DNA from: Candidatus Shapirobacteria bacterium
GTDB taxonomy: Bacteria; Patescibacteriota; Microgenomatia; UBA12405
Direction of reading: 5' to 3'
Length of the DNA stretch: 64,000 nt
Assembly (NCBI GenBank): GCA_041659325.1
Contig: JBAZYN010000001.1
Span: 494,819 to 558,818, forward strand
Positions 4,243 to 62,217 of this stretch are shown here, one piece after another (within the stretch, counting starts at the first letter, position 1; every line of letters begins with the position of its first letter). The notes beneath the pieces are model-generated. The model saw only the letters and a program-made list of their open reading frames with translations, was not told the origin of the DNA and did not search any database. Made by a program: the position numbers and the translations under genes.

Positions 4243-4420
4243 CGTCATTGCGCCTGTCCTTTTACCCGCCGAGGCGGACCTATGGCGGAAAGAGTGGAAC
4301 AAGGTGTCAACCTTACGCCCGTCATTGCGAGGAGCAGTTGTTTAGGCGACGTGGCAATCTTCACGGCAAGAAATATAAAATCGCCACATTCACTTCGTTT
4401 ATTCGCGATAACGTTCAGTA
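4243..4420. repeat. MITE-like repeat family, composite/partial copy A (two CGTCATTGCG heads, CCGCC-N-GGCGG palindrome, GACGTGGCAATCTT module)
   Basis: Shares terminal and internal modules with copies at 16324, 45969, 49920, 53894 and 57290. Confidence 0.45.
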
Positions 4421-5406: not shown

Positions 5407-5478
5407 GGGCTAATTTTGACGATATTTTTGGCTTTTTTTATAAATTTATATTGCCTATCTTAGGGCTTTATTTGCTTA

Positions 5479-5506
5479 TTGTAAAGCTATTTTAATTTGT
5501 TAGAAT
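5479..5506 (+). promoter_or_regulatory. candidate sigma70-type promoter for gyrB (TTGTAA - 16 nt - TAGAAT)
   Basis: Hexamers seen upstream of the gyrB ATG at 5530; spacing is acceptable. Confidence 0.35.
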
Positions 5507-5529
5507 GGAACTGTACGCAATAATTATCT

Positions 5530-7473: not shown

Positions 7474-7475
7474 AA

Positions 7476-11821: not shown

Positions 11822-11856
11822 AATTACCGATTACTGATTACAAATTACTAATTACA
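11822..11856. repeat. tandem heptamer array (GATTACT/GATTACA/AATTACT)
   Basis: 7-nt periodicity immediately 3' of the minus-strand membrane-protein gene. Confidence 0.4.
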
Positions 11857-11864
11857 AAATTTGA

Positions 11865-12671
11865 TTATCTCCACCTGGTCATCACAATAATTGCCAAAAA
11901 TATAGCCACTCCCACCCAGACGAATCCCATCCACGTCTTCCGAAACAGTCTCCCCCGAATATCGCCCTGCAACAACCCCGATATAATATAAATCACAGAC
12001 ACCAGGTACATCGACCCTCTAAAAATTCCCACTGGCCAAAACGAAAATATCATTCCCAATTGGCCCAAAATTAATCCGGGAGCCAAAACATAGGCCATCC
12101 GGTTTTTATCCTTGCCGTCATCAGGTAGCTCAATCGCAATTGCCCAAAATTGATACAAAAATAGCAAAGTCGACACCGCAAAGATCACCAGTCCGTTTAT
12201 CCAATAATCCCATCTGAAAGAAAATATGGTATCAAACAAAAAAAACGCCGCCAATAACAAGATTATCAAGCTAACCGTATACGCCGCCCGATACAAAGGT
12301 ACCGTTTTATAGCCTATTGCCACCAAAAATACATTTTCAACCAAAAAAATAATATAGCAAAGCCCCCCAAAAAATACACTCATCGCCAATGAACCGACAA
12401 ACGAAGCAGGCAATATGGCCGCAAACAAGCCAAAGCCAATAAACAGCGCCGACGGCAACAAAATTGCCATCAGTCTAAGATAAATGCTATCGGCAAATAT
12501 TATCCCCAATCCAAACCAAAAACAAAAAATAACCAAAAGCGTCCCTACAATTAATCCGTAATACCGCGATTCATAAGGTAGGGAAATAAACATAAAAAAA
12601 CCAACCGCCGATAAAATCGATGAGACCAGATACTTAAACCTTTTGGACATAGTCAAACCCGGTAAAAACAT
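11865..12671 (-). CDS. hypothetical polytopic membrane protein
   Basis: 268-aa ORF with about 7 hydrophobic helices; no motif recognised. Confidence 0.6.
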   Translation of the reverse strand: MFLPGLTMSKRFKYLVSSILSAVGFFMFISLPYESRYYGLIVGTLLVIFCFWFGLGIIFADSIYLRLMAILLPSALFIGFGLFAAILPASFVGSLAMSVFFGGLCYIIFLVENVFLVAIGYKTVPLYRAAYTVSLIILLLAAFFLFDTIFSFRWDYWINGLVIFAVSTLLFLYQFWAIAIELPDDGKDKNRMAYVLAPGLILGQLGMIFSFWPVGIFRGSMYLVSVIYIISGLLQGDIRGRLFRKTWMGFVWVGVAIFLAIIVMTRWR

Positions 12672-16323: not shown

Positions 16324-16477
16324 CGTCATTGCGCTTGTCCGCCTTTGGCGGAAGGAGTAAAACGACGTGGCAATCTTTACAGAATTTGACTATACAAATC
16401 TCTCCACTCCGGGTTAATGCAATTGATTATGTCTAACGTTAAAGATTGCCACAGTCAATCCTTCCTTCGCAATGACG
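16324..16477. mobile_element. MITE-like element copy B (154 bp; TIR CGTCATTGCG / CGCAATGACG)
   Basis: Perfect 10-nt terminal inverted repeats. Internal CCGCCTTTGGCGG palindrome. Inverted GACGTGGCAATCTTT / AAGATTGCCAC modules. Confidence 0.55.
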
Positions 16478-17728: not shown

Positions 17729-17816
17729 TGGTGCCGAAGGACGGAATCGAACCGTCACGGTTTTTAAGGCCACAGGTTTTTGAGACCTGCGTGTCTACCA
17801 ATTCCACCACTTCGGC
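17729..17816 (-). tRNA. tRNA-Leu(CAA), type II with long variable arm, CCA encoded
   Basis: Acceptor GCCGAAG/CTTCGGC (7 bp). Anticodon stem CAGGT/ACCTG with loop CTCAAAA. T-arm GACGG-TTCGATT-CCGTC. Discriminator A then CCA. Confidence 0.85.
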
Positions 17817-17950: not shown

Positions 17951-18014
17951 AATTACTAATTACAGATTACAGATTACTGATTACAGATTACTGATTACAG
18001 ATTACCAATTACCA
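17951..18014. repeat. tandem heptamer array (AATTACT AATTACAG ATTACAG ATTACTG ATTACAG ATTACTG ATTACAG ATTACCA ATTACCA)
   Basis: Nine 7-nt units immediately 3' of dnaB. Confidence 0.6.
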
Positions 18015-33614: not shown

Positions 33615-33646
33615 TTTATTTGAATTCTATAATTTCTAATTACAGA

Positions 33647-33672
33647 TTACTAATTACTGATTACAGTTTACC
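33647..33672. repeat. tandem heptamer array (TAATTACAG ATTACTA ATTACTG ATTACAG)
   Basis: Immediately 3' of recR. Confidence 0.5.
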
Positions 33673-45968: not shown

Positions 45969-46108
45969 CGTCATTGCGATCCGCCAACTGGCGGAGTGGC
46001 AATCCCTGCCTGCCGGCAGGCAATCTTTACAGGATTAAAATAGTCAAGCTGTTTCAAGATTGCGGAGCCTGTCCCGAGAAACGAGGGATCGTTTCTCCTC
46101 GCAATGAC
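45969..46108. mobile_element. MITE-like element copy C (140 bp; TIR CGTCATTGCGA / TCGCAATGAC)
   Basis: Begins 2 nt after the GH stop codon. Internal CCGCCAACTGGCGG, GTGGCAATC and CCTGCCTGCCGGCAGGCAATCTTTAC modules. Confidence 0.55.
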
Positions 46109-46126
46109 AAAACAGTTCTCACTCTT

Positions 46127-46213
46127 AATTCGTAATTAGTAATTAGTAATTTTGGAATTTTATTACAGGTTACAGATTACTTATTACAGATTACCAATTA
46201 CAGGTTACCAATT
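46127..46213. repeat. tandem heptamer array (TAATTCG TAATTAG TAATTAG ... TTACAGG TTACAGA ... ATTACCA ATTACAGG TTACCAA)
   Basis: About 12 units directly 3' of rseP; overlaps its stop codon. Confidence 0.6.
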
Positions 46214-47258
46214 ATTTGAATATCCTCACCACATCACCGGCTGTGATCAAAAATATCAAAAACAACAACACCACCATTCCGAAATTATTAATAGCCGTTT
46301 CAAACTTTTGGTTGACCCGTTTTCTGAAAATCATTTCATAAACCACAAAGATTATCCTTCCTCCGTCCAAAGCCGGAAAAGGTAAAATATTTACCACCGC
46401 CAAATTTACAGATACTATCGCAAAAAAATGTACCACCGCCAACATCCCCTGGTTTTGTTTGATACTACTTGTCGCCTGAAACATCCCAATTGGCCCGCTC
46501 ACATCTTTTGGCACTCTGCCCTGAAATAGTTCACTCACCATGCCGATCACTCCGCTTCCAATAATTTTTCCCCAATAATAAGCCTCTCGAAAACCAGCCC
46601 CAATCCCTTTATGTATCTCATACCACTTCATTGGCACCATTTCCGTGTTAGATACCGTCACCCCCATTCCGCCCTCACCTGCCGGAGGATTTTCCCTTAC
46701 AAAAACTTTTACTTCTCTTTCGACTTTTAGACTTTCGACTTCTAGACTAATTTCTTGTCCCTTATATTTTGCCACTTCATCTGTCATCTCTCTTGCGCTA
46801 AAAACCGGTTTACCCTCAACTTCGACCACCGAATCTCCTTCTTTAAGCCCTGCCATTTCCGCCGGGCTACCCCCGGTAATTCCTATTATCTTCACCACCT
46901 TTATATCCGTCGGCACACCGGAAACGGAATAAACAAACGAAAAAATCGCTATTGCCAAAACCAGATTCATCAACACTCCCCCCAAAACCACCATCATCTT
47001 CTGCCACGGTTTTTTATTATTAAACGCCACCCCACCCTTTCCGTCTCCATCTTCGCCATACAATTTACAAAACCCTCCGATCGGCAGCCAATTCAAACTA
47101 AAAATTGTTCCGCCAAATTTTTTCCCCACGATTCTCGGTGGCAAACCCAATCCAAATTCTTCCACCTTTACCCCGGTTTTAATCGCCGCAAAATAATGGC
47201 CAAACTCATGAACCAAAACCAAAATAGAAAGCGCAATTATAAAAATTAAAATATCCAT
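46212..47258 (-). CDS. rseP: RIP metalloprotease RseP (site-2 protease) with PDZ domain
   Basis: HEFGHYFAA HExxH motif in TM1, PDZ domain, C-terminal LDG motif. Contains an in-frame 30-nt CTTTCGACTTTTAGA x2 repeat. Confidence 0.9.
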   Translation of the reverse strand: MDILIFIIALSILVLVHEFGHYFAAIKTGVKVEEFGLGLPPRIVGKKFGGTIFSLNWLPIGGFCKLYGEDGDGKGGVAFNNKKPWQKMMVVLGGVLMNLVLAIAIFSFVYSVSGVPTDIKVVKIIGITGGSPAEMAGLKEGDSVVEVEGKPVFSAREMTDEVAKYKGQEISLEVESLKVEREVKVFVRENPPAGEGGMGVTVSNTEMVPMKWYEIHKGIGAGFREAYYWGKIIGSGVIGMVSELFQGRVPKDVSGPIGMFQATSSIKQNQGMLAVVHFFAIVSVNLAVVNILPFPALDGGRIIFVVYEMIFRKRVNQKFETAINNFGMVVLLFLIFLITAGDVVRIFK

Positions 47259-47265
47259 CTTTATG

Positions 47266-47298
47266 TGATCTGTAACCGGTAATCTGTAATCAGTAATT
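47266..47298. repeat. heptamer array in inverted orientation (CTGTAAC CGGTAAT CTGTAAT CAGTAAT)
   Basis: The only array in the opposite orientation; lies between the rseP start and the four-helix-bundle gene. Confidence 0.45.
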
Positions 47299-47399
47299 TA
47301 AAACTATTTTTGACTCTCAACAGATTTAATTAAACCATTAATTAATTTTTCAGCAACTTTACTTTGGACCCAAATTTTCTTGCAGGAATCAGAATCTAT

Positions 47400-47705
47400 C
47401 TATTTTAGATCTTTTGCTAACAAAATAAAATTTTGAACTTCCTTTAGCGATCCTCTTGCTTGAAAATAGAATTTAATTTTATCATTAAAATGATATCTAC
47501 CAAATCCCTCTGCTATATTAGCACTAATTGAGCTCGCAGCCCTCCTTAGCTGATCACAAACTCCATATTTCTCAACTCGAGGGAACTTATCCAATATTTT
47601 ATAAACAGAAATCACCAAGGCGTGTGATTCCTTCCATGAATTTAAATCATAAAAATCCAATATTCTCCCCATCTTCCTATCACATTCTACCAGTTTGATT
47701 ACCAA
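47400..47705 (-). CDS. four-helix-bundle protein (23S rRNA intervening-sequence protein family)
   Basis: KFPRVEKYGVCDQLRRAASSISANIAEGFGRY ... ARGSLKEVQNFILLAKDL is the signature of the TIGR02436-type family. Confidence 0.75.
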   Translation of the reverse strand: MVIKLVECDRKMGRILDFYDLNSWKESHALVISVYKILDKFPRVEKYGVCDQLRRAASSISANIAEGFGRYHFNDKIKFYFQARGSLKEVQNFILLAKDLK

Positions 47706-47770
47706 TTACAGGTTACCAATTACAGGTTACCAATTACAGGTTACCAATTACTGATTACTGATTACTGATT
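47697..47770. repeat. tandem heptamer array (GATTACC AATTACAGG TTACCAA TTACAGG ... ATTACTG ATTACTG ATTACTG)
   Basis: About 10 units between frr (3' end) and the four-helix-bundle gene start. Confidence 0.65.
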
Positions 47771-48322
47771 TTATCCCCTTATCTCCCCTTCCTTCTTACT
47801 GGCCACCATTTCCAATTTCTCAATATATTGGTCAGTCACCTTTTGCAACTCTGCCTCATCTACCTTAAATTCATCCTCGGAAACTGTTTTTTCTTGCTTT
47901 GCCGACTGTAATTCTTTCCGGAAATCTGCCCGGGCATCCCGGATCATCACTCTCGCCGCTTCAAGTTTCCTCCCCAAGATTTTTATATAATCCTCTCTTT
48001 GTTCTGTTGTTAGCATCGGCAAGCCCATCCGGATTATTTGCCCGTCAACTGCCGGGTTCATGCCAATATTGGCCGCCGCAATCCCATTGGCAATTTCCTT
48101 TACCAAAGTCCCATCCCACGGTTGAAAAGTCAATGTTCTTACGTCGGGCACTCCAATCGATCCAAGCTCAATCAGTCTCATTTTTTGTCCGCCATACACA
48201 GTTACCACCACATTCTCTATCAACCCCGGCGTTGCCCTGCCGGTCCGAATCGATGAAATATCATCAACAAAAATTCCTACAATCTTATCCATTCTCGCTT
48301 TTACGTTTGGGATATTTATCAT
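47771..48322 (-). CDS. frr: ribosome recycling factor
   Basis: Full-length RRF pattern (MINIPNVKARMDK ... VRTGRATPGLIENVVV ... MGLP). Confidence 0.92.
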   Translation of the reverse strand: MINIPNVKARMDKIVGIFVDDISSIRTGRATPGLIENVVVTVYGGQKMRLIELGSIGVPDVRTLTFQPWDGTLVKEIANGIAAANIGMNPAVDGQIIRMGLPMLTTEQREDYIKILGRKLEAARVMIRDARADFRKELQSAKQEKTVSEDEFKVDEAELQKVTDQYIEKLEMVASKKEGEIRG

Positions 48323-48341
48323 ATCGTTATTTTACCAAACT

Positions 48342-48379
48342 AATTACCAGTTACAGATTACAGATTACAGGTTACCAAT
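48342..48379. repeat. tandem heptamer array (AATTACC AGTTACAG ATTACAG ATTACAGG TTACCAA)
   Basis: Directly 3' of tsf. Confidence 0.55.
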
Positions 48380-48838
48380 CTATATCTCAAATCTACCAAT
48401 TCTTCCAAGTTTTATATTCTCCCCAAATTTTGCCACCAGTGCTTTTATCAGATCCGATACGGTTTTGGACGGATCCTTAATAAAATCCTGTTTTAGCAAA
48501 GCCTTTGCATCTTTGGGATTCATCGCCGCCACCTGCAAACACAAATCCTTTGCCAGGGCCATATATTCTTCATTTTTTGCCACAAAATCAGTCTCACACA
48601 ATAGTTCCACCATTACCCCGATTTTACCGGTTGCATGAGTATAAGTGGCCACCCTGCCCTGATGAGTTTCCCTATCGGCCTTTTTCTCCGCCTTTTGAAA
48701 TCCTTTTTCTTTCAATATTTCTCTTGCCTTCGACTCGTTGCCCTCGGCCTCTTCCAGAGCCGCCTTAATTTCCATCATTCCTAATCCCAATTCTTCCCTC
48801 AATTTTTTAACTAGCTCAATTAATTTTTTAGTCTCCAT
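48380..48838 (-). CDS. tsf: elongation factor Ts (short form)
   Basis: UBA-like N-terminus LVKKLREELGLGMMEIKAALEEAEGN and TDFVAKNEEY core. Confidence 0.85.
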   Translation of the reverse strand: METKKLIELVKKLREELGLGMMEIKAALEEAEGNESKAREILKEKGFQKAEKKADRETHQGRVATYTHATGKIGVMVELLCETDFVAKNEEYMALAKDLCLQVAAMNPKDAKALLKQDFIKDPSKTVSDLIKALVAKFGENIKLGRIGRFEI

Positions 48839-48861
48839 TTTTTTATTTTAATATTAATTTA

Positions 48862-48897
48862 CAATTACAGATTACTGATTACAGATTACTGATTACC
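48862..48897. repeat. tandem heptamer array (AATTACAG ATTACTG ATTACAG ATTACTG ATTACCA)
   Basis: Directly 3' of rpsB. Confidence 0.55.
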
Positions 48898-48900
48898 AAC

Positions 48901-49818
48901 TCATTTCACCCCCGCCGCTTTTATCGCCTTCCCGATTTCTTCAACAATTATCGTGATGCTTTTAACATTATCATCGTTGGTCGGAATGGCAAAGTCCACC
49001 TTAAAAGGATTACTATCTGTATCTACCATCGCCAGAGTCTTTACCCCCCTCATCGTCGCTTCTTTAATGGTCGTTTTTTCAAACCCGGCATCAACCGCAA
49101 AGACCATATCAAATAATTTATCGAGTTTAACCAGTCCCCCCACTATCTTTTCCAATCTAATCACCTCTTTTTTCATCTCAAGGATTTCTTTTTTAGTGCT
49201 TTCGGTAAATTTCCCCTTCTCCAACCCGTCTTTAAGATCAACTAGTTTTTTTATATCTTTTCGGATCTGATCCCAATTAGTAATTGTCCCTCCCAACCAT
49301 CTGTCTGTTACATAAGGTACGCCGGCTTCAGTCGCCACTCTCCGGACCACTTCACGGGCCTGGCGCTTGGTTCCAACCAATACTATCTGTTTACCGTTCC
49401 TTTTAGCGTTGTATATGTAATTACACGCCGCTTCCAGTCCGTCTAGAGTTTTAACCAAATCAATCACCTGAATTCCGTCTTTGGCCGCATAAATCGACTC
49501 TCTCGCCTTTGGATGAGTTTTAGAAATTTTGTGACCCAAATGACATCCGGCATCCAGTAAATCTTTTAGCCCGATTGTCAGAGTATATTTTTTGTCAGCC
49601 TTGGCATCTGCAGCTACTTTTTCTGCCAAAACCACTGCCTGCAATTCCTGTTTCTTGGACAAAGCATCTTTTTTTGCTCTGAGATCTTCATTAATCTTTT
49701 TAATCTTATCTGCCGTTACCGCCGTCTGTTTCTTGGCTTTTACTACTAACGCTTTTTTTACCAAACTTTTACCGGTTCGGTTTACGGTTTTTACGATCGT
49801 CTTTTTCTTTTCTTCCAT
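48901..49818 (-). CDS. rpsB: 30S ribosomal protein S2 with about 75-aa Lys-rich N-terminal extension
   Basis: LLDAGCHLGHKISKTHPKARESIYAAKDGIQVIDLVKT and VGTKRQAREVV match S2. The extension is low complexity; the start codon is uncertain. Confidence 0.9.
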   Translation of the reverse strand: MEEKKKTIVKTVNRTGKSLVKKALVVKAKKQTAVTADKIKKINEDLRAKKDALSKKQELQAVVLAEKVAADAKADKKYTLTIGLKDLLDAGCHLGHKISKTHPKARESIYAAKDGIQVIDLVKTLDGLEAACNYIYNAKRNGKQIVLVGTKRQAREVVRRVATEAGVPYVTDRWLGGTITNWDQIRKDIKKLVDLKDGLEKGKFTESTKKEILEMKKEVIRLEKIVGGLVKLDKLFDMVFAVDAGFEKTTIKEATMRGVKTLAMVDTDSNPFKVDFAIPTNDDNVKSITIIVEEIGKAIKAAGVK

Positions 49819-49919
49819 TTTGTTTTGTCCTTACTAATAATCTTGGGTGGGCCAACGGCCAGGACAAACACCCGCCAATTAACTAATAACTATTCAATCG
49901 GAAATTATAACACACTCTC

Positions 49920-50010
49920 CGTCATTGTGTCTGCCCGTTTACCCGCCTTTGGAGGGAGAATCCTCGACGCTAATCGGGACGACGTGGCAATCTTTCGGCT
50001 CTTGCCGTCT
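49920..50010. repeat. MITE-like family, partial copy D (CGTCATTGTG head, CCGCCTTTGGAGGG, GACGTGGCAATCTTT)
   Basis: 5' modules present; no matching 3' inverted repeat; followed by the perfect hairpin GAGACACCCCGCGGGGTGTCTC. Confidence 0.4.
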
Positions 50011-50602
50011 GGATTTTCCTTGTAGAGACACCCCGCGGGGTGTCTCAATACAAAAATAAAAAAAAGGTGAATTGAAAAAAACAACAACCCAGGAAAACAC
50101 AAAAAACAAAAACAAAACAAAAAAAATAAAAAAACGTAACCCCATGGTTACTAACAAAGGGGGCATTCCCCTTTGCTTTTTCTTTTTTCTTTTTTTTCTT
50201 ACCATCCCTCGGGGTGGGCCATAGAAGACAGCGATGTCCTCTGATCTTTTTCGGCCCACCCCGAGAACCCCTTACACCGGGGCTACGACTGGCGTGTGAA
50301 AGGGCCGCCGCAATTGGGGTATGCCTTCACGCACCCACTCCTCAGACGGTTGCACTGCGAGCAGAAACTCGACTTGTTACCCACCACCAGCAGAATCAGA
50401 AAAGACAAAAGACGTTCCACGTCGCCTCCTTTGGGCAGTCATAAAAAACCCATGGAACCCCACGGTGAAAACAACGCGACACGCTATTTTTTTAAAAATT
50501 AAGAACCTAACTCTCACACAATCATATTCGCTTCTCCTCTCTAAATAGAATCAACCAATCCACCAAAAGATGAACTCGTTGATCCCATTTAAAAAGGGTT
50601 TA

Positions 50603-50650
50603 ACTACAGATTACAAGTTACAGGTTACCAATTACTGATTACCAATTACC
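50603..50650. repeat. tandem heptamer array (CTACAG ATTACAAG TTACAGG TTACCAA TTACTGA TTACCAA TTACC)
   Basis: Lies inside the ORF-poor 1.8-kb region. Confidence 0.55.
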
Positions 50651-51595
50651 AAAATTTTTTCCTGGGTTGTTAACGAACAGGAACGTTTAAACGACATTTG
50701 TCGTTTATTACGTTCAGGACAGGAACAAAATCATCTCAAAACCGCATTGGTTCCTAATAATTTTGTTACGAAAAACAATCCGATTATATCACACTATACT
50801 AGTCCTTGTCCCTGGGGACACTATTCCCCACAAAACCTTCTTCCCTAGGTCCATATCGCTTCAACCATCGCCCCAACTTGGCCGTCCTCTTTAACCCTTC
50901 GGCTCTTTCCTCTGGACTTTCCCTGGCAACAACTACAACTGCCGGTGGTATCTCTTCCGCCACTGTTACCATAACTTCCCTTGCTTTTGCCCCCAATCCG
51001 GGCATTGGCATCTGAATCGTCAGGGCCTCCAACGTTTTTCCCATTAACCTATTTTAATCCATATTTAAAAAATAAAAACAACAAGACAACTCAAAACACC
51101 AAAAAACAAACAAAGTGGAGTGACCACCATCGTGCATGGTCACCCCACCCGTTGTCTTCGCCCTCGGCGATCTTTGGGACTTACCCAATGACCGCCGATA
51201 TTAGCGACAGAAAACCCCAGCTAGCCAACGCGGTGGGGATCAGGACAAACAAAAGGCAAAACCCCCCACCCTCCGAAGCAGGCTGGTCGTCGTTCTTCTG
51301 CGTAGCCGCTAGCTGAAAGAAGGACAATGCCGCACAAAGTGCGAGCAAAGAGCTAGCCGCAACCCACCTGATTTTCATCTTCATGCGATTTTCCTTTCTG
51401 GCCAATGGCCATGAGTTGTCTTGTTGTCAACGAACCAGTCTTCAGCAAACCGCCGCTTACAGATATAAATCTTTGGCAATCTGCTAAAACTATATCTTAT
51501 AATATCACATATCATCGAAAAATACAACAATATATTTACATAACAGACAAAATCATAAACCCTGTTTCCGTCCAATATTAGTGTAAAATCAAACT

Positions 51596-53872
51596 ATGCC
51601 CGACAGTGTTCAAAGCCAGTTCACCATTCTTGAAATCCGTCTGCCACAAAACAACGAATACACTCTGGAGTCTATGTCCTCTCTTTTTTCCAATTTCACC
51701 CAATTTTCCAGTCTTGGATTTTTCGAGAAACTCCTCGGCAAAAAGAAAACTATTGCCTCAATTGAAATCGCCCTGATAAACGGCCAGATTAGATTTTTTG
51801 TCGTCACCAACACCCGTGACGCCGATTTTTTCCGGGCCCAAATTTTAGCCCAATACCCCACTGCCATCACCCGCAACCCCGATGATTATCTAACCCCTTT
51901 TTTAGTCGGGTCGCACTGCCCCGTTACCCCAGGCCAAGATTCCACTCCAAAAACAGAAATAACCCCCCAGCGCCTCAGTTTCATCCAGCTTGGTCTTTCC
52001 CGCATGTCTGATTACCCTCTAAAAATCGCCAAAGACTTTCGCGATACCGATCCTCTAAATTCCATCCTGGCCCCGCTCTCCCGATCAAACAGCCGCGATG
52101 ATTTTTTCCTCTATCAAATAATTCTTTCCTCCGCCCCCAAAAACTGGCAGGGTCCAATTATCGACGTTATTCAAAACGGCACGGTAGTCGACAAAGAAAA
52201 AGGCTATCACCAAGCTCATCCCGACAAAGCCGTCTTTGAGCAAAAAATCCAGTTCCCCGGGCTTCTGGCCCAAATCAATCTTTTCTCCAATAATCCCGGG
52301 TTAATTACCGGCGTTTCCTCCTCCTTTGGCATCTACACCAGCCCCCGCGGTAATCTTATCAAAACCTTTACCCCTGGTTTTTTTCACAAAAATAAACTCC
52401 CAACCGCAATATTCTCCAGGGAAATCAAAAAAGGTCTCAAAACTCAGATTCTAAACACCGAGGAACTCGCTGCCCTCTGCCATTTTCCCAATAAACTCAC
52501 AAAACTTCCTAACATCGCCTGGGGCAAAAAACTTTATGCCGAACCCCCGGAAAATCTCCCCATAATCGAAGGTCTCTCCGAAGAAGAAAAAAACAAAATT
52601 ACCGTTTTCGGTCGCACAGAATTCCGCAACAAAGACGCCATTTTTGGTATCAAAGAGGGGGAAGACCGTCGCCGCCATACCTATATTATCGGTAAATCCG
52701 GTACCGGAAAAACCACCCTCATTGCCAACATGGCCATTGATGACATCAGAAAAGGCCGTGGCGTCGCTATCATCGACCCTCACGGTGATCTTTGCAACAC
52801 CATTCTTGACTATATTCCCAGCAACCGCATCAACGACTGTTGTTATTTCAACCCCGCCGATCCGGAATACGTCTACCCGTTAAATGTTCTCGAGGCCAAA
52901 AACGAGTCCCAAAAAGAATTAGTCGCTTCCGGTGTCCTCTCCATCTTCAAAAAACTCTATGGTACTGTTTCCTGGGGACCGCGTCTCGAGCACATCCTCA
53001 GAAACACCGTCCTGACTCTTGTAAATACTCCCGACTCCAACCTAACCCATGTTATCGAAATCTTAACCAACAGAAACTATCGAAATCGGGTTATTGAAAA
53101 GTTAAACAATCAAACTCTCAAAAACTTCTGGCTCAACGAATTTGACCGAATGGACCCAAAATTCCAAAACGAAGCCATTGCCCCGGTTCTAAACAAAGTC
53201 GGTCAGTTCATTTCCTCCACCAAAATCAGAAACACTCTTGCCCACTCCAAATCAAAAGTCGATATTCAAAGCATCATGGACCAAAAAAAGATCCTTATAG
53301 CCGATCTCTCCACTGGCCGCCTCGGAGAAGACAATTCATCTCTTCTAGGCGCTATGTTAATCACCCAAATCCAGCTTTCCGCCATGAACCGTGTTTTTCA
53401 AACGGTAGAAGAAAGATCTGATTTCTATCTTTACGTCGACGAATTTCAAAACTTTGCCACAGAAGCTTTCATCAAAATCCTCTCCGAAGCCCGTAAATTT
53501 AAGCTTAATCTAATCGTCGCCAATCAATACATGAACCAGTTGGAACGTCCGATTCAGGATGCTATTTTCGGCAACGTCGGTTCCCTTATCTCCTTTGTCG
53601 TTGGCAACCAGGATGCCGCTATCCTCCAAAAAGAATTCGGAGCCGAGTTCCCCTCAGATGACCTTGTGAAACTTGGTAGATATCAGGTCATTTGCCGTCT
53701 CTCCATTGACTCAGAAACAACCCAGCCTTTTTATTCCAACACCCTTCCGCCGCTCCTGTGCAAAAATCAGCATCGCGATAAAGTAATTAGAACTTCCCAG
53801 GAAAGATGGGGCAAAAAACTAAAAGACGCCTTTCCCCCACCCAATTCCCTGCCAGTCATTCCACAACCCTAA
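51596..53872 (+). CDS. P-loop ATPase of the VirB4/VirD4(TraG/TrwB) type IV secretion or conjugation family, no TM segments, 350-aa unknown N-terminal domain
   Basis: Walker A IIGKSGTGKTT, then IDPHGD. Walker B LYVDEFQNF. Family-typical ARKFKLNLIVANQYMNQL (RK...Q..QL) box. Confidence 0.6.
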   Translation: MPDSVQSQFTILEIRLPQNNEYTLESMSSLFSNFTQFSSLGFFEKLLGKKKTIASIEIALINGQIRFFVVTNTRDADFFRAQILAQYPTAITRNPDDYLTPFLVGSHCPVTPGQDSTPKTEITPQRLSFIQLGLSRMSDYPLKIAKDFRDTDPLNSILAPLSRSNSRDDFFLYQIILSSAPKNWQGPIIDVIQNGTVVDKEKGYHQAHPDKAVFEQKIQFPGLLAQINLFSNNPGLITGVSSSFGIYTSPRGNLIKTFTPGFFHKNKLPTAIFSREIKKGLKTQILNTEELAALCHFPNKLTKLPNIAWGKKLYAEPPENLPIIEGLSEEEKNKITVFGRTEFRNKDAIFGIKEGEDRRRHTYIIGKSGTGKTTLIANMAIDDIRKGRGVAIIDPHGDLCNTILDYIPSNRINDCCYFNPADPEYVYPLNVLEAKNESQKELVASGVLSIFKKLYGTVSWGPRLEHILRNTVLTLVNTPDSNLTHVIEILTNRNYRNRVIEKLNNQTLKNFWLNEFDRMDPKFQNEAIAPVLNKVGQFISSTKIRNTLAHSKSKVDIQSIMDQKKILIADLSTGRLGEDNSSLLGAMLITQIQLSAMNRVFQTVEERSDFYLYVDEFQNFATEAFIKILSEARKFKLNLIVANQYMNQLERPIQDAIFGNVGSLISFVVGNQDAAILQKEFGAEFPSDDLVKLGRYQVICRLSIDSETTQPFYSNTLPPLLCKNQHRDKVIRTSQERWGKKLKDAFPPPNSLPVIPQP

Positions 53873-53893
53873 GGTTTTTCCACCCCGCTAGTT

Positions 53894-54000
53894 CGTCATT
53901 ACGATCCGCCAACTGGCGGAGTGGCAATCATTACAAGACTTAGTTAGTCAAGTTGTTTCAGAATTACTTCTCCCGACGTAACGTCGGGATCGCAATGACG
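53894..54000. mobile_element. MITE-like element copy E (107 bp; TIR CGTCATTACGATC / GATCGCAATGACG)
   Basis: Fills the convergent gap between the ATPase gene and topA. Contains CCGCCAACTGGCGGAGTGGCAATC and a CCCGACGTAACGTCGGG hairpin. Confidence 0.55.
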
Positions 54001-54004
54001 GGTT

Positions 54005-56044
54005 TTAAGGTTTCTTCCACCCTGCCCACTTACACTCCGGATATTTCGAGCAGCCATAAAATTTCTTGCCGCTCCGGGTTCTCTTTATTACCACCGGCGC
54101 CCCACACGTCGGACAGTCAAATCCGGCCACTTCCTGATACTGTTTAGTATACCTACACTCCGGAAACCGGCTACAAGAAATAAACTTCCCGAATTTCCCC
54201 AGTCTAATAACCAGCTCCCCCTCCTTACACTCCGGACATTTTTCCCCCAATTTTTCCGTCTCCACCTTCACTCTCTCTGCCCCGGCTTCGGCTATTTTTA
54301 CATCCTTCTCAAATCTGTTCCAAAATGTTTTCATCATTTTTTTCCAATCCAATTTTCCCGCCGCAATTTTGTCCAAATTACCCTCCATGTCAGCCGTAAA
54401 CGGCAACGACAAAACTTCAGAAAAATTCCTTACCAAAAATTCATTGGCCGCCTTGCCCAATGCTGTTGGGATAAATTTCCCCTCATCCTTTTCCACATAC
54501 TGTCGAATCTGAATAGTCGAGATAATCGGCGCATAAGTACTTGGTCGCCCGATTCCCTGTTTTTCCAGGCTCGATACCAAACTTGCCTCGGTATATCTTG
54601 GCGGTGGGTTAGTTTCCGACTCCTCAAACCATATCTTTGTAGCCGAAATCATCTCTCCTTCTTTTAAAGCCGGCAATATCTGATCTTCAAATTTCTCTCC
54701 ATTAATCTTCAAAAACCCATCAAAAATCATCCTTACTCCTTTTGACTGAAACAGACCGCCTCCGTCTCGCAGATTAACCACCGTACTTCCTGTTATCGCC
54801 GCTGCCCCCTGTGTTGCCACTGCCCGTTTCCAAATCATTTGGTATAGTCTATTCTCCCTCGGGTCTGCATCCGCCAGTTCTGTCCTATTTACGTCTGTCG
54901 GCCTGATAGCCTCATGCGCCTCCTGGGCATTCTTGGCCGTATTTTTATAGTACCTGATCTTTGCCGATATATACTTTTCTCCGTATGTTTTGCCGATATA
55001 TTTTCTGAAATCATTTATCGTTTTTTCGGCAATATAGACCGAATCAGTCCGATGGTATGTTATAAAGCCTCTTTCAAACAATCTTTGCGCCACACTCATT
55101 GTCGTTTTCCCTGGCCATCCAAACCTCCTGGCCGCTGCCTGTTGAAGTTTTGATGTTGTAAAAGCCGGCAGCGGCGTTCTGTTAATTTCTTTCTCTGTTA
55201 CTTTCTCGACCACCATTTGGTTTGATAGGTCATTCACGAATTTCGTCACCTTCTGCCTATCCTCAAAAATCGACTTGGTAAAAGAATAAACCCCGTCAAA
55301 TAGTTTGATCTTTTCCGTTTTAAACGCCGACTTTTCTTCCACCTTTATCAGATCAGCGTCAAACTTTTCCCTCCCCTTTTTCAATTCCGCCAATACCTTA
55401 AAAAACACTTCTTTTTTAAATGCCTCAATCTCTTTTTCCCTTTCGCACACCAGTCTCACCGCCACCGACTGCACCCGCCCACCGGACAAACCTCTCCTTA
55501 CTTTTCTCCACAAAACCGGAGATAAAGTATAACCCACCACCCGGTCAAGAATCCTTCTCCCCTGCTGCGCGTTTACCAAATCCATATCCACCGCCCGTGC
55601 TTTTCCCATCGCATCAGAAATTGCGTCCTTAGTAATTTCATGAAATGTTATTCTGCTGATATCAAGCTTCTTTCCCACTTTCAAACTTTCAGACTTTCCC
55701 ACTTTCAGACTTTTAGACTTTAAGACTTTTGACTCATCTGGATGCGTCAGCAACCACTCCACATGCCACGATATTGCTTCCCCTTCCCGATCCGGATCTG
55801 TCGCCAACAATACTCTTTTAACTCTGGCCGCAGTTCTAATAAGGTCCTCTACCACATTTTTTTTCTTGGGATCGATCTTGTAATCCGGCTCAAAACCGTG
55901 TTTAATATCCACCGACATCTTATTCCCCGGCAAATCTCTCAAATGACCCACGGTCGCAATCACCTCAAAATCTTTTCCCAAATATTTCCCTATAGTTTTC
56001 GCTTTCGTCGGCGATTCCACTACCAATAAACTCTTGTCTCCCAT
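54005..56044 (-). CDS. topA: DNA topoisomerase I with C-terminal zinc ribbons
   Basis: Toprim N-terminus LLVVESPTKAKTIGKYLG ... GHLRDL, active-site Tyr region, several C4 ribbons (CPECKEG ... CSRFPEC; CPTCGA ... CSKYPEC). Carries an in-frame SLKVGK low-complexity repeat insertion. Confidence 0.95.
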   Translation of the reverse strand: MGDKSLLVVESPTKAKTIGKYLGKDFEVIATVGHLRDLPGNKMSVDIKHGFEPDYKIDPKKKNVVEDLIRTAARVKRVLLATDPDREGEAISWHVEWLLTHPDESKVLKSKSLKVGKSESLKVGKKLDISRITFHEITKDAISDAMGKARAVDMDLVNAQQGRRILDRVVGYTLSPVLWRKVRRGLSGGRVQSVAVRLVCEREKEIEAFKKEVFFKVLAELKKGREKFDADLIKVEEKSAFKTEKIKLFDGVYSFTKSIFEDRQKVTKFVNDLSNQMVVEKVTEKEINRTPLPAFTTSKLQQAAARRFGWPGKTTMSVAQRLFERGFITYHRTDSVYIAEKTINDFRKYIGKTYGEKYISAKIRYYKNTAKNAQEAHEAIRPTDVNRTELADADPRENRLYQMIWKRAVATQGAAAITGSTVVNLRDGGGLFQSKGVRMIFDGFLKINGEKFEDQILPALKEGEMISATKIWFEESETNPPPRYTEASLVSSLEKQGIGRPSTYAPIISTIQIRQYVEKDEGKFIPTALGKAANEFLVRNFSEVLSLPFTADMEGNLDKIAAGKLDWKKMMKTFWNRFEKDVKIAEAGAERVKVETEKLGEKCPECKEGELVIRLGKFGKFISCSRFPECRYTKQYQEVAGFDCPTCGAPVVIKRTRSGKKFYGCSKYPECKWAGWKKP

Positions 56045-56057
56045 GTTTATAAAATTT

Positions 56058-56178
56058 ATTTACTAAATTACTAATTACAGACTTGCCTGCCGGTAGGCAG
56101 GTTACCAGTTACTGATTACAGATTACCAGTTACCGGTTACAGATTACCATTTACCAATTACTGATTACCAGTTACAAG
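56058..56178. repeat. long tandem heptamer array with embedded palindrome GACTTGCCTGCCGGTAGGCAGGTTAC
   Basis: About 15 heptamer units (ATTACTA ATTACAG ... TTACTGA TTACAGA TTACCAG ...) between the 133-aa gene and the topA start. Confidence 0.6.
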
Positions 56179-56210
56179 TCTATATATTATCACCACCTGT
56201 CAAGCTTTCA

Positions 56211-56626: not shown

Positions 56627-57295
56627 CTACAATCCTTCTAAATCTTCAATCCCCGTTACAATATTCGCCCCGTTTTTAATCAGATAATTTGGCGCTGCCG
56701 AATTGGTATCTGTCATTCTCCCTGGCACTGCCCATACCTCCCGCCCCTGCTCCGCCGCCAGCCTTGCTGTTACCAAAGTTCCGCTTCTTTTCGACCCCTC
56801 AATTACCACTACCCCCCTCGAGATTCCGGAAATTATTCTGTTTCTTGCCAAAAATTTTTCCGGGGCCGGCAATACTCCGTTTGCATATTCTGAAACTATC
56901 AACCCTCCACTAGCCAAAATCAATTCATAAAGCCACTTATTCGACCTCGGGCTAACCACGTCCACTCCCGAAGCCAAAACCGCAATTGTTTTCCCGCCCC
57001 TCTCAGTACAAACCCTTTGCACTTGAGCATCTACCCCAAAGGCCATCCCCGACACTACCACAATCCCGGTTCTGACCAGTTCCGGAACTAGCTTTTCCAC
57101 CACTTCTTTCCCGTATTCACTGATATTTCTGCTCCCCACCACCGCCAGGGCTTTCTTTTCTCTTAGCAACTCCGTATTCCCAAGACAATACAGTCTATCG
57201 GGGCAATCCGGTATCTGCCGCAGTAAATACGGAAAACTGTCACTATCTTTACAAATTACTTTTATTTCCACTCCTAAATCATATACTAACGTCAT
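56627..57295 (-). CDS. dprA: DNA processing protein DprA (Rossmann-fold core only)
   Basis: ALAVVGSRNISEYG ... VVSGMAFGVDAQ ... IISGISRGVVVIEGSKRSGTL DprA core motifs. The ATG start lies inside the CGTCATTGCG head of MITE copy F. Confidence 0.85.
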   Translation of the reverse strand: MTLVYDLGVEIKVICKDSDSFPYLLRQIPDCPDRLYCLGNTELLREKKALAVVGSRNISEYGKEVVEKLVPELVRTGIVVVSGMAFGVDAQVQRVCTERGGKTIAVLASGVDVVSPRSNKWLYELILASGGLIVSEYANGVLPAPEKFLARNRIISGISRGVVVIEGSKRSGTLVTARLAAEQGREVWAVPGRMTDTNSAAPNYLIKNGANIVTGIEDLEGL

Positions 57296-57362
57296 TGCGA
57301 TCCGCCAACTGGCGGAGTGGCAATCTTTTCTAGTCCTCCCTTCTTCAAGGGAGGGAATTAAA
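57290..57362. repeat. MITE-like family, partial copy F (CGTCATTGCGATCCGCCAACTGGCGGAGTGGCAATC plus a CCTCCC ... GGGAGG hairpin)
   Basis: The first 36 nt match copies C and E almost exactly; no 3' TIR found. Confidence 0.4.
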
Positions 57363-57385: not shown

Positions 57386-57457
57386 ATTACAGATTACAGA
57401 TTACAGACCTGCCTGCCGGTTTACCCGCCGTGGTGGGCAGGCAGGTTACAAATTACA
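57386..57457. repeat. tandem heptamer array with embedded palindrome CCTGCCTGCCGG ... GGGCAGGCAGG
   Basis: AATTACAG ATTACAG ATTACAG then palindrome then TTACAAA TTACATT; overlaps the PBP2 stop codon. Confidence 0.6.
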
Positions 57458-60246: not shown

Positions 60247-62217
60247 ATGAAATTAATACCCAGGGCAATTATTTTTTGCTACCTCCTGCTTTTCTTTTTC
60301 ACCCCCCTGATTTTCACCTCCTTTAATTCAGAGCTGTTCGAATTACCCAAAACTTACTTTGTTTTTGCCATTACTATACTTGTTCTTTCCCTTCATTTAA
60401 TCAATCATTTTGTCAACGCCACTCCCCTCTATCGCCGCAGCTTCCTGGACATCCCTTTTGCACTATTTCTACTCTCCCAAGCCATTTCCACCATTATTTC
60501 CATCGATCCCCACACCTCTCTTTGGGGCTATTATTCCCGAATGAACGGCGGGCTTTTATCCACCGTCTCATATCTCACCCTTTTCTGGGTTTTCAATGTT
60601 TACCTCACCGATTCTCTAAAAAACAAGCTAGTCCACACTGCCCTGATTTCCGGATTAATAGTCTCTGTGTACGGAATTTTGCAGCATTTCGGTATCGACA
60701 AACACCTCTGGATTCAGGATGTCCAAAACCGGGTTTTCTCCACCCTCGGCCAACCAAATTGGTTGGCCGCCTATCTTTGTATCCTTATCCCTTTTGCCAT
60801 TTTGAAATTTCTTAATTCCAAATCAAAGTTACAGTTTACTGTTTACAGTTTACTGATTACCGTTTTTTATCTGTGTCTCCTTTTTACCAAATCCAAATCA
60901 GGTATTCTTGCCGCCATCATCACCATCTCTCTCTTTCTTATTATCTATTCCCAAAAAACAAAAAAAATTCTATTACCGATTATCGTTTCCGGCTTAGTGA
61001 TTATTTTTCTTTTTACCGTCAACAATCCCATTCAAAATCGCCTTTCCCCCTCCTCCCCCCAAACTCCCTCAGCCCTGTCAGAGGTTACCGCCGACACTAA
61101 TATTACTGCCTCAGAAGATATCAGAAAAATTGTCTGGCAAGGTGCCTTTGACCTCTGGAAACGTTTCCCCGTCCTTGGCACCGGAGTAGAAACTTTTGCC
61201 TATTCTTATTACTGGACCAGGCCGACCTCTCATAATCTCACCTCCGAGTGGGACTTTCTCTACAACAAAGCCCACAACGAATATTTAAACTACCTCGCTA
61301 CTACCGGCGCTCTAGGCTTACTTGCCTACCTCCTCATCATTTTCACCGTTCTCAAAAAATTAATCCCTAATCACCAATCCGATATAGAAAACCTGGCTAT
61401 CCTCTCCGGCTTCTCCGCCATTTTGATCACCAATGCCGCCGGTTTTACCGTCGTTGTCTCATCTTTATTTTTCTTCCTTCTTCCCGCCCTCATCAAAATC
61501 CCGCCACAGGTTATTACTCCAAAAGCCAAACTAAAAGATAATTTTTTTACCATTCCCCTTGTCATTTTTACCCTAATCTGTGGCAGCTATCTTTTCAACA
61601 CCATTACCGCCTATTATCTAGCCGATATCGCCTTCGCCCAATCCGAAAATACCGATGCCGACCAAGAGCCTCAAACTGCCTATGACTACATCGGCGCCGC
61701 CATTAAATTTCGACCCACCGAGCCCTTGTACCAAAGCAAGATGTCTACCATCGCCGTCAAACTCGCTTCCATCGACAAACAATCGCAAGACAACAACATC
61801 AAGATCGCCCTGGCCGCTTCTGACAAATCCGTTGCCGATTCTCCGGCCAATGTTAACTTTTGGAAAGAACGAGCCCAAATGTTTATTTACCTGTCCACCA
61901 TCGATTCAAAATATTTTACCGACTCCATCGAGTCCCTTCTCTCCGCCTCCCGTCTTGCTCCCACCGATGCCAAAATTTTTTATCTTATCGGTCGTTTTTA
62001 TCTTACTGCCGGCCAAACTCCAGAGGCCCTTTTGTACTTTCAAAAAGCCATCGACCAAAAACCAAACTATGATTTTGCCTATTTTGATATGGGGAAAATT
62101 TATTTGGATCAGAAAGACTATCAAAAAGCCAAAGAATCATTTGAAACCACCCTAAAAATCGCCCCAAAAAACACCGACGCCCAAAATTACCTTGATCAAA
62201 TCAACCTCCTTGACTAG
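60247..62217 (+). CDS. O-antigen ligase (Wzy_C) family membrane protein with C-terminal TPR repeats
   Basis: About 10 TM helices. Periplasmic loop WQGAFDLWKRFPVLGTGVETF ... NKAHNEYLNYL matches Wzy_C. C-terminal TPR-like helices. Contains an in-frame heptamer stretch at 60828-60865. Confidence 0.7.
   Translation: MKLIPRAIIFCYLLLFFFTPLIFTSFNSELFELPKTYFVFAITILVLSLHLINHFVNATPLYRRSFLDIPFALFLLSQAISTIISIDPHTSLWGYYSRMNGGLLSTVSYLTLFWVFNVYLTDSLKNKLVHTALISGLIVSVYGILQHFGIDKHLWIQDVQNRVFSTLGQPNWLAAYLCILIPFAILKFLNSKSKLQFTVYSLLITVFYLCLLFTKSKSGILAAIITISLFLIIYSQKTKKILLPIIVSGLVIIFLFTVNNPIQNRLSPSSPQTPSALSEVTADTNITASEDIRKIVWQGAFDLWKRFPVLGTGVETFAYSYYWTRPTSHNLTSEWDFLYNKAHNEYLNYLATTGALGLLAYLLIIFTVLKKLIPNHQSDIENLAILSGFSAILITNAAGFTVVVSSLFFFLLPALIKIPPQVITPKAKLKDNFFTIPLVIFTLICGSYLFNTITAYYLADIAFAQSENTDADQEPQTAYDYIGAAIKFRPTEPLYQSKMSTIAVKLASIDKQSQDNNIKIALAASDKSVADSPANVNFWKERAQMFIYLSTIDSKYFTDSIESLLSASRLAPTDAKIFYLIGRFYLTAGQTPEALLYFQKAIDQKPNYDFAYFDMGKIYLDQKDYQKAKESFETTLKIAPKNTDAQNYLDQINLLD

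Follow-up and report, generated by a model that had tools for sequence, protein, structure and literature searches.

Candidate small-protein transcription units framed by predicted long-distance helices in a lineage-variable spacer upstream of rpsB in Candidatus Shapirobacteria

Introduction

Type I toxins are usually shorter than 60 amino acids (aa), hydrophobic, and membrane-active, and mRNAs of this type include that of hok/Sok, with its fbi-tac pairing and its short upstream frame mok, and that of Helicobacter aapA/IsoA. Classical RNase III substrates measure approximately 20 bp or more, and phage or prophage morons, which are self-contained promoter-ORF-terminator units lodged between conserved genes, are not known to be framed by a conserved long-range helix. 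The present analysis concerns a 64,000-nt stretch of DNA from a Candidatus Shapirobacteria bacterium (GCA_041659325.1, contig JBAZYN010000001.1, positions 494,819 to 558,818; hereafter, the window) and, within it, the spacer at 49819-51595 between two divergent core genes, rpsB on the minus strand and a TraD/VirD4-like ATPase gene on the plus strand. Two small candidate transcription units in this spacer, termed cassettes A and B, were compared with the descriptors of type I toxin mRNAs, namely 5'-3' long-distance interactions, pairs of Shine-Dalgarno (SD) and anti-SD sequences, and terminal stem-loops (PMC8594479).

The spacer is best explained as a lineage-variable island that holds small autonomous transcription units on the minus strand, and it is better described in this way than as an RNA gene. 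Cassette A (approximately 51507 to 51066) and cassette B (approximately 50791 to 50075) are best explained as paralogous closed cassettes of one plan, which matches no catalogued RNA, protein, or mobile-element family. The plan would comprise an extended -10 promoter, a leader of ~70-115 nt, an A/C-rich arm of 15-16 nt, an optional hairpin, an SD, a small open reading frame (ORF) of foreign composition, a GC-rich hairpin or terminator, a U/G-rich tract, a complementary arm, and a U-run. The reading that we consider most likely, at about even odds, is that each unit is an mRNA for a small protein that a 5'-3' long-distance helix closes. The sequence features with their conservation and covariation, the G.U bias, and the restriction to one strand and one locus were observed; transcription as drawn, translation of the ORFs, and the function of the proteins are what we infer.

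Comparison with described systems

In function, the units would be most like type I toxin mRNAs and, in organisation, most like morons, and we filed them under neither. Like type I mRNAs, they appear to combine a small ORF and a short autonomous transcript with an enclosing 5'-3' helix, an anti-SD, and terminal stem-loops, and cassette B, like hok/Sok with mok, has a short upstream frame. Folding of the type I kind was also predicted, as the closing helices were contained in both the minimum free energy (MFE) and centroid structures, and pairing of an SD was predicted in the window and in the related locus L023 (related loci are designated by L numbers). They differ from type I systems in several ways: many of the cargo proteins are Cys-rich and hydrophilic rather than membrane peptides; a leader of ~70-115 nt places the 5' arm inside the transcript; the 3' arm comes after both a proximal terminator and a long U/G tract; and all copies lie at one chromosomal locus. 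For an antisense RNA, no plus-strand extended -10 promoter was found inside either cassette, in a scan that was limited to the promoter type of the units and would pass over a weak or atypical one.

The likeness to morons lies in the unit that is present or absent, which is a whole promoter-to-terminator module with a GC content unlike that of the host, located between conserved genes. Unlike morons, the cassettes showed no phage context or similarity. No cargo ORF had a PHROG hit, a blastn search against 50,697 phage records returned no match, and an IMG/VR scan with a 15-mer arm gave 50 single chance hits, with the one locus having a nearby partner lying inside a tail-protein gene. A prophage moron was rejected, as no prophage location or phage-gene similarity was found.

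Inverted repeats of 13-19 bp bounding a few hundred bp are also a feature of miniature inverted-repeat transposable elements (MITEs) and other elements with terminal inverted repeats (TIRs), but the cassettes differ from MITEs in being restricted to a single locus, in lacking a target duplication, in having presence/absence edges that lie off the repeats, and in tolerating G.U pairs in a strand-specific manner. Complementary segments that lie hundreds of nt apart and enclose RNA are known from the RNase III stems of rRNA precursors and some phage mRNAs, and a stem of this kind could excise the enclosed part from a longer transcript or insulate it; unlike those stems, the helices here are 13-19 bp long, and the enclosed RNA would be a small mRNA. 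A long ORF-poor stretch with strong predicted structure is shared with OLE, GOLLD, ROOL, HEARO, and the housekeeping RNAs, whereas the modular framing around ORFs and an interior that is not conserved among relatives are unlike them.

With Rfam 15, whose families also cover ribosomal-protein leaders and riboswitches, only tRNA-Leu at 17732-17816 reached the gathering threshold in the window. The best match within 49600-51800 was a low-complexity one to the RNase P of Plasmodium, which scored 34.5 bits where the threshold is 100, and searches of four relatives at E<=0.1 returned only low-complexity or miRNA noise. A retron was rejected because no reverse transcriptase domain was found, the neighbours being rpsB, an 81-aa ORF, and the TraD/VirD4-like ATPase. 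An integron cassette was rejected because no integrase occurs among the flanking ORFs, the units have their own promoters, and the arms are long-range rather than a local attC hairpin.

Rarity and conservation of the predicted closing helices

Two perfect long-range inverted repeats, which had been overlooked in a preliminary description of the region made from its sequence, enclose the ORFs of the cassettes. Apart from 51078-51093/51412-51427 (cassette A) and 50083-50097/50657-50671 (cassette B), the 64 kb contains no perfect pair of 15 bp or longer whose arms are 120-1400 nt apart. In the window, the exact 13-mer TTCCTGGGTTGTT has just two occurrences, which form an inverted pair; in L006, whose ribosomal protein S2 is 63% identical, it likewise occurs exactly twice, as an inverted pair upstream of rpsB.

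Spacer length ranges from 344 to 505 bp in six relatives and from 730 to 4683 bp in the window and 12 others. A helix of at least 13 bp was identified in 12 of the 13 loci with a spacer above 700 bp (the window and 12 relatives), the exception being L027 with a 12-bp candidate, and in none of the six loci with a spacer below 510 bp. The cassettes of the relatives follow the same plan of an A/C-rich 5' arm, SD, small ORF, GC hairpin, T/G-rich tract, complementary arm, and T-run, and their 5' arms are usually preceded by TTAAC or TTGAC. When both strands of 238 kb of related loci were searched, helices with the signature of an A/C-rich 5' arm and a T-run after the 3' arm were confined to this spacer and were all in the sense of rpsB, except for two hits on the opposite strand that were near-palindromic or of low complexity. 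No further cassette copies were found in the 64 kb or in the 238 kb of relatives outside the spacer. Noncoding T/G tracts of at least 24 nt occur in the 64 kb in the two cassettes only.

The sole other T/G tract (12504-12538) was rejected as a third cassette, as it lies within a membrane-protein gene. The TTGACA or TTAACA of the arms was also considered as a -35 box and rejected, as inspection of the window, L009, and L023 revealed no correctly spaced -10 element. In L011, the same spacer is 4.7 kb long (5327-10010) and contains three larger ORFs (429, 252, and 309 aa) in addition to one helix-closed cassette (5634-6232) with 17-bp arms and a 66-aa Cys-rich ORF; this cassette departs from all others in having an A/G-rich tract before the 3' arm and an A-run after it.

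Proposed pairing of the arms at the RNA level

Covariation was tested by a direct comparison of how each arm pairs with its own partner and with the other partners. The 12 distinct arm pairs were 37% alike between cassettes, and pairing was 100% with the own partner and 48% with other partners. Orthologues of cassette B were recognised by a shared hairpin (P2, described below) and a shared outer arm sequence, and in two of them (L021 and L007) the inner closing helix was replaced on both sides relative to that of the window.

Each of the seven independent internal arm mismatches was a wobble (G.U or U.G) when read on the sense strand, with no A.C among them (binomial p = 0.008, against a null in which G.U and A.C are equally frequent without selection at the RNA level). 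The helix search used Watson-Crick seeds and was blind to the type of an isolated mismatch, and chance helices elsewhere in the window showed ~1 wobble per 14 mismatches. The arms were also not the boundaries of insertions or deletions. In L009, whose S2 is 87% identical, cassette A is wholly missing, including the promoter and leader that lie outside the arms, and no target-site duplication was seen at the arm ends in the window, L009, or L023. Because the mismatches are exclusively sense-strand G.U pairs and the arms are not indel boundaries, the sequence comparisons favour pairing of the arms at the level of RNA rather than DNA.

The cassette A unit, which is present in L023 and absent from L009, is flanked in L023 by imperfect direct repeats, TTTTTTATAAATT (225-245) and TTTTTTAAAAAAATT (715-735). 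L009 has one copy, TTTTTTGAAAAATT, at 55-80, a pattern that a deletion by short homology or an insertion with duplication could each explain.

Organisation of cassette A

The features of both cassettes are given in the sense of the minus strand. Promoter scans identified three minus-strand extended -10 promoters at the expected sites, one for each cassette and one for rpsB. That of cassette A (51499-51527) consists of TTGTAT, 17 nt, and the extended -10 element TGATATTAT (51499-51507), and the promoter motif GATATTATAAG.TATAGTTTT was also found upstream of a cassette in L023 and L024. The leader (51428-51498) carries GCGGTTT and GGTTCGTTGACAA motifs, which it has in common with cassette A of L023 and with the leader of cassette B. 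It is followed by the 5' arm (51412-51427, sense ACAACAAGACAACUCA), which is A/C-rich, 16 nt long, and 100% complementary to 51078-51093.

The cargo is a 67-aa ORF (51181-51384) with the SD AAAGGAA 8 nt upstream, which would extend to 74 aa with a TTG start at 51405; it has a signal-peptide-like N-terminus and a C-terminal hydrophobic segment. Downstream lie a GC-rich hairpin or intrinsic terminator (51113-51150), for which the terminator scan gave 15 pairs followed by TGTTTGTTTT; a U/G-rich low-complexity tract (51094-51112) identified by the T/G-tract scan; the 3' arm (51078-51093); and a U-run (51066-51077), the last two from the inverted-repeat search and the fold. The arms are separated by 318 nt, and the closing helix was paired in both the MFE and centroid structures (z = -8.0 against shuffled sequences). 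Cassette A has no P2, and the space inside its arms is nearly all ORF.

Organisation of cassette B and the intervening ORF

Between the cassettes lies an 81-aa ORF (50799-51044, minus strand), which was also called as a gene on a separately assembled Logan contig. It has positional relatives in L023 (34% identity) and L009 (31%), which share MGK...PGL...AEE.

The promoter of cassette B (50783-50812; GGGACA, 18 nt, TG-TATAAT), found by both the promoter scan and the extended -10 scan, is nearly identical in L009 and L023. Alignment and folding of the leader (50674-50781) identified a conserved hairpin, AAAAUUAU..GGAACC..GGUUUU..GAUGAUUUU; the leader is 88% identical to that of L009 over 75 nt and has an extra hairpin (50682-50715) specific to the window. 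The 15-nt 5' arm (50657-50671, sense AACAACCCAGGAAAA) is 100% complementary to 50083-50097, and the arm pair is identical in L009 and L023, with 13 nt of it retained in L006. A heptamer array reading GTAATCN on the sense strand (50605-50650), detected with TRF, was inserted or expanded after the arm; L009 and L023 have one TAATCTATAG at this place.

The P2 hairpin (50542-50591) has the conserved form ACGAGUU...AUUGGUU, and RNAalifold across five genomes predicted 22 pairs, 10 of which have compensatory changes. It is followed by an SD, GGAG (50534-50537), and a mini-ORF of three codons, MIV* (50514-50525), both recognised from the five-genome comparison. The ATG was invariant in all five genomes, with a GGAG-type SD (GGGG in L023) 8-14 nt upstream. 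The peptide itself was not conserved among the relatives (MKWH*, MI*, MLPP*, or 32 aa), the frame ranging from 2 to 32 codons. The terminator scan and the fold then placed an anti-SD (50467-50479) and a terminator-like hairpin with a U-run, T1 (50450-50465), within 50443-50479. The anti-SD sits 40-60 nt upstream of the SD of the cargo ORF and was predicted to pair with the SD and start codon at 50417-50429; the same pairing was predicted in L023.

The segment 50283-50433 holds the SD AAAGGAGG (50425-50433) and the cargo of cassette B, a 45-aa ORF from the ORF list that starts with GTG at 50420 and ends at 50283. Its N-terminus is hydrophobic, and its Cys residues are arranged as C-x2-C...C...C. 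This Cys pattern recurs in small ORFs at the corresponding position in L023 (46 aa, 43% identity) and L006 (35 aa, 41%), the first three Cys and a GP being invariant among the three. A large GC hairpin (50208-50265; z = -5.0) lies 3' of the ORF and consists of a 13-bp perfect stem and an inner stem; its counterpart in L023 is GCGGGGTGGGCG...CGCCCACCCCGA. The preliminary description had recorded the perfect stem, CTCGGGGTGGGCC/GGCCCACCCCGAG, at about 50196-50262, and it exists slightly to the right of this, at 50208-50220/50253-50265. The segment ending in CCCACCACCA, which had been noted next to the stem, is present at 50381-50390 and is the antisense of the codons LVVG of the 45-aa ORF. A tRNA-like CCACCA 3' end or a tmRNA was rejected for this reason, and ARAGORN found no tmRNA.

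Further downstream, the terminator scan and the fold identified a purine-rich tract (50172-50200) and terminator hairpins (50155-50175 and 50136-50151). The first hairpin also reads as a plus-strand terminator and is not conserved in L023, and GGUUACGUUUUUUU, from the tract and terminator segment, is kept in L009 and L023. The U/G-rich tract (50098-50135, 38 nt), which is the A/C-rich tract of the plus strand, has counterparts before the 3' arm in L007, L009, L021, L023, and L024 with a T+G fraction of 0.87-1.00. The 3' arm (50083-50097) and U-run (50075-50081) complete the cassette, as seen in the inverted-repeat search and the fold. The arms are separated by 559 nt, and the closing helix was contained in the MFE and centroid structures (z = -6.7).

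L009 has a compact 215-bp cassette B that lacks the ORF module and keeps the promoter, leader, P1 (the closing helix), P2, and U/G tract; the MFE and centroid structures of this unit also contain the closing helix (z = -7.7). In the window and L023, the edges of the ORF module are marked by a terminator hairpin that occurs in duplicate (50465-50445 and 50151-50125) and not by the arms.

Coding potential of the small ORFs

The sequence features suggest that the small ORFs are genes. The bodies of the three ORFs folded no better than shuffled sequences (z = +0.18 for the 67-aa, +1.6 for the 45-aa, and -0.6 for the 81-aa ORF), and the excess structure thus sits in the framing rather than the coding parts, namely in the closing helices, the P2 hairpin, and the terminator or SD-sequestering hairpins. 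The GC content at third codon positions (GC3) in the proposed frame was raised for two of the three ORFs (0.65 for the 67-aa and 0.70 for the 45-aa ORF, against 0.42-0.51 in core genes). The ORFs have SDs at proper spacing, and their orientation matches the promoters and terminators. The Cys pattern of the 45-aa ORF is kept even though the DNA of the window cannot be aligned with that of L023 or L006 in this part.

The cargo ORFs are GC-richer than the host rpsB in the window and most relatives, which fits a foreign origin or an unusual amino-acid make-up. In the relatives, the cargo is hydrophilic or Cys-rich (82 and 46 aa in L023, 35 and 68 aa in L006, and 66 aa in L024). Nothing significant was retrieved for the small ORFs of the window in Pfam, PHROGs, NCBIfam, and PADLOC, or for ten ORFs from relatives in Pfam and PHROGs, and an exact look-up of the 45-aa product returned no record.

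Genomic setting of the spacer

The rpsB gene (48901-49818, minus strand) was identified by Pfam Ribosomal_S2 (E = 5e-67), and the gene on the other side (51596-53872, plus strand) encodes a 758-aa P-loop ATPase with weak matches to TrwB, DUF87, and TraD/VirD4-like families. The two genes are neighbours in all fetched related genomes that have both on the contig, and where the contig extends further, the fuller order is topA, ATPase, spacer, rpsB, and tsf. L009 and L023 are colinear with the window across the region boundaries, and a separately assembled Logan contig (run SRR18595301) was 100% identical over 2367 bp across both boundaries.

The ATPase of the window and its homologues in L024, L027, L029, L031, and L035 have DUF8128 at the N-terminus and a P-loop domain that resembles TrwB/TraD/VirD4/HerA, every family match being far below the curated cut-offs. 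The gene adjoins topA in the relatives whose sequence covers this flank (L024, L025, L027, and L029-L031). On the other side, S2 has a Lys-rich N-terminal extension of ~85 aa (49560-49818, minus strand), with the Pfam S2 domain beginning at residue 87, and this extension is common to the Shapirobacteria relatives. The GC skew of the plus strand is strongly negative throughout 46000-55000 (-0.1 to -0.5), over genes of both orientations, and is thus strand-wide and not tied to gene orientation; it does not switch at the ATPase-rpsB spacer.

The preliminary description had presented the spacer as DNA of anomalous composition without a convincing ORF, harbouring one or more structured RNAs, a large ornate noncoding RNA (ncRNA), a decayed element, or a chimeric insert. 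Conserved and statistically significant structure is present: the region gave z = -4.6 and -6.7 on the two strands against shuffled controls, and the values across the region and its units ranged from -4.6 to -8.0. The single large ornate ncRNA is not upheld, as the structure is limited to the framing elements and the ORF bodies fold no better than shuffles. An Rfam check on both strands, at the gathering threshold and at E<=10, matched the region to no known RNA family, and with ARAGORN finding no tmRNA, the region is none of tmRNA, RNase P, signal recognition particle RNA, or 6S RNA. A decayed protein gene was not supported either.

As to the ORFs, the 74-aa and 81-aa frames listed earlier lie where they had been placed, and it is correct that no ORF longer than 111 aa lies wholly inside the region, but the coding evidence (SDs, GC3, and positional relatives) had been understated. 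The GC-rich parts do look foreign, with a GC content of 0.59 at 50200-50399 and 0.55 at 51100-51299 against 0.44 for the whole window. Some flanking coding DNA also reaches 0.50-0.53.

Proposed mechanism and alternative explanations

If the units act as proposed, the two arms would pair within the mRNA and enclose its entire coding part, and in cassette B, the local anti-SD helix would also sequester the ribosome-binding site of the 45-aa ORF. The closed mRNA would be shielded from exonucleases and restrained in translation, and it could be opened by trimming of the 3' tail (U/G tract and arm) back to the GC hairpin or by opening of the helix; type I toxin mRNAs such as hok and aapA are known to follow this logic. 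The closing helix with its U-run could have a second role in shielding rpsB-tsf against read-through from upstream, either as a back-up terminator or as an RNase III site. A broader version, in which the site by the ATPase is a landing pad where a portable RNA frame (promoter, leader, and A/C arm on one side, U/G tract, arm, and U-run on the other) takes in small foreign proteins that are exchanged rapidly, keeps them silent, and expresses them under certain conditions, is quite unlikely when taken as a whole; it adds that the proteins are Cys-rich or membrane-active, possibly episymbiotic effectors or toxins, and that the gene-cassette system is defined by an RNA closing helix and not by a recombination site.

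Several observations weigh against the small-protein mRNA model. The arms were found as inverted repeats and are therefore complementary by construction, which leaves the G.U bias (n = 7), the signature of the context, and the restriction to one locus as the only independent support. A strong local terminator lies 23-55 nt before each 3' arm; only read-through transcripts would carry both arms, and the arms may rarely coexist. The 5' arm lies ~70-115 nt downstream of the promoter and not at the 5' end of the transcript. Cassette B of L009 holds only a 4-codon ORF. The 67-aa protein is an orphan, as an exhaustive HMMER search of 1.84 billion representatives returned only itself and one spurious hit, and a search of the protein database with the alignment of the three Cys-rich peptides gave no candidates. 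The fold predictions come from thermodynamic models, and the evidence as a whole is a sequence analysis of about a dozen lineages within one candidate class.

One alternative is a structured ncRNA, in which the conserved core of cassette B (leader, P1 closing helix, P2, the hairpin with GGAG and the mini-ORF, and a single-stranded U/G tract; ~215 nt in L009) would itself be the product, a new class upstream of rpsB, and the ORFs would be either insertions that the RNA tolerates or frames left open by chance in GC-rich DNA. L009 retains the promoter, leader, P1, P2, and U/G tract without an ORF longer than 4 codons and is strongly structured (z = -7.7), P1 and P2 covary, the cargo has no database relatives, and open frames of 45-80 codons are not rare at 55% GC. 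We nevertheless consider this explanation unlikely: P2 is followed by a conserved SD and ATG in five genomes, the GC-rich ORF bodies show less structure than any other part, and the Cys pattern is kept without matching conservation of the DNA. Cassette A, moreover, has no P2 and an interior that is nearly all ORF, the content between the arms is swapped wholesale among close relatives, unlike a functional RNA core, and Rfam offers no match. The hydrophobic segments of the 45-aa and 67-aa products, together with the closing helix, SD sequestration, upstream mini-ORF, and terminal hairpins that match the published descriptors (PMC8594479), would suit a bona fide type I toxin-antitoxin system, with the ORFs as membrane toxins and an unrecognised antisense RNA as the antitoxin. 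Such a system is very unlikely, given that the cassettes contain no antisense extended -10 promoter (the sole plus-strand match lies in the 81-aa ORF), that the cargo of the relatives is hydrophilic, basic, and Cys-rich rather than hydrophobic, and that the defence and toxin libraries gave no match.

The repeats could also act at the DNA level, as the TIRs of MITE-like or recombinase-mobilised elements that import small foreign ORFs into a hot spot. Perfect inverted repeats of 15-16 bp enclose variable, GC-richer cargo, the arms begin with TTAACA or TTGACA, and cassettes are present or absent among close relatives, with the cargo exchanged between cassette A of the window and that of L023. Mobility of this kind has a low probability in our estimate, on a par with the toxin-antitoxin system, as the indel boundaries lie off the repeats (the L009 gap includes the promoter and leader, and the module of cassette B is bounded by terminators), the mismatches are exclusively G.U on one strand, and the cassettes keep strictly to one orientation, a T-run following the 3' arm. 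Extra copies beyond the spacer in the 64 kb and the 238 kb of relatives, target-site duplications at the arm ends, and a transposase or integrase nearby were all lacking. The GC-rich blocks within AT-richer DNA had also raised the suspicion of an assembly chimera or contaminating foreign insert. This is extremely improbable, since the separately assembled Logan contig is identical across both boundaries and L009, L023, and L006 share modules in the same order or place.

Implications for Patescibacteria

Patescibacteria (Candidate Phyla Radiation, CPR) have tiny genomes, and to our knowledge, their regulation is almost unstudied experimentally. Framing of small-protein genes by a helix, if true, would count as a case of post-transcriptional control in these bacteria; a literature search on CPR small proteins and inverted repeats returned nothing relevant and no description of such framing. 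It would also flag unannotated small proteins, Cys-rich or membrane-like, that are missed by gene callers and protein databases, and if the cassettes beside the ATPase are toxin-like or carry effectors, they would have a bearing on episymbiont-host interaction. The candidate descriptor (TGNTATAAT, 60-120 nt, an A/C arm of at least 12 nt, 150-900 nt, a T/G tract, the complementary arm, and a T-run) could be searched for in thousands of metagenome-assembled genomes and tested in existing metatranscriptomes.

The rpsB leader and repeat families of the window

The rpsB promoter (49904-49933, minus strand; CAGACA, 18 nt, TG-TATAAT), found in the promoter scans, and the 5' leader (49819-49897) are conserved in L008, L009, and L023. 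The leader contains a possible anti-SD, TTTGTCCT, and an upstream UUUGUCCU that can pair with the SD region AAGGACAAA, a motif conserved in the same three relatives. It may be an autoregulatory leader of S2. The fold of the leader alone was not significant (z = -0.4), and another hairpin takes its place in the more distant L003 and L004.

Between cassette B and the rpsB promoter, the sequence and fold show a perfect 22-nt palindrome, GAGACACCCCGCGGGGTGTCTC, which lies exactly where it was first noted (50025-50046); L009 and L023 have a different hairpin, TCTCCCTTTGACAAGGGAGA, at this position. The low-complexity tracts reported beside it are likewise present, the A/C-rich tract at 50047-50135 (GC 0.20) and the T-rich tract at ~50172-50200. 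What had been taken for a partial MITE copy is present as an element but belongs, as a long-form member (49920-49992, plus strand; CGTCATTG...GGCAATC), to a family of palindromic elements resembling repetitive extragenic palindromes (REP-like). Pattern scans found six copies of this family, against 0.01 expected by chance, and a variant at 53894 was found in the repeat list only. The sites are 4320-4359, 16324-16375, 16444-16477 (minus strand), 45969-46004, 49920-49992, 53894-53937, and 57290-57325, with conserved ends, variable hairpin interiors, and lengths of 34-73 nt. L008, L009, and L023 have no such element where the window has the copy at 49920.

The heptamer array of cassette B is real (TRF, 50605-50649) but not special to the region, being one of at least 12 in the window. 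These 7-nt arrays, reading ATTACAG/ATTACCA/ATTACTG on the plus strand, occupy many short intergenic spacers, such as those of rpsB|tsf|frr, and lie at 11822-11858, 17952-18012, 33630-33671, 46160-46214, 47264-47297, 47697-47770, 48351-48375, 48859-48896, 50605-50650, 56098-56179, 57386-57407, and 60829-60865. As L009 and L023 have a single unit where the window has the array in cassette B, the arrays seem to expand in place.

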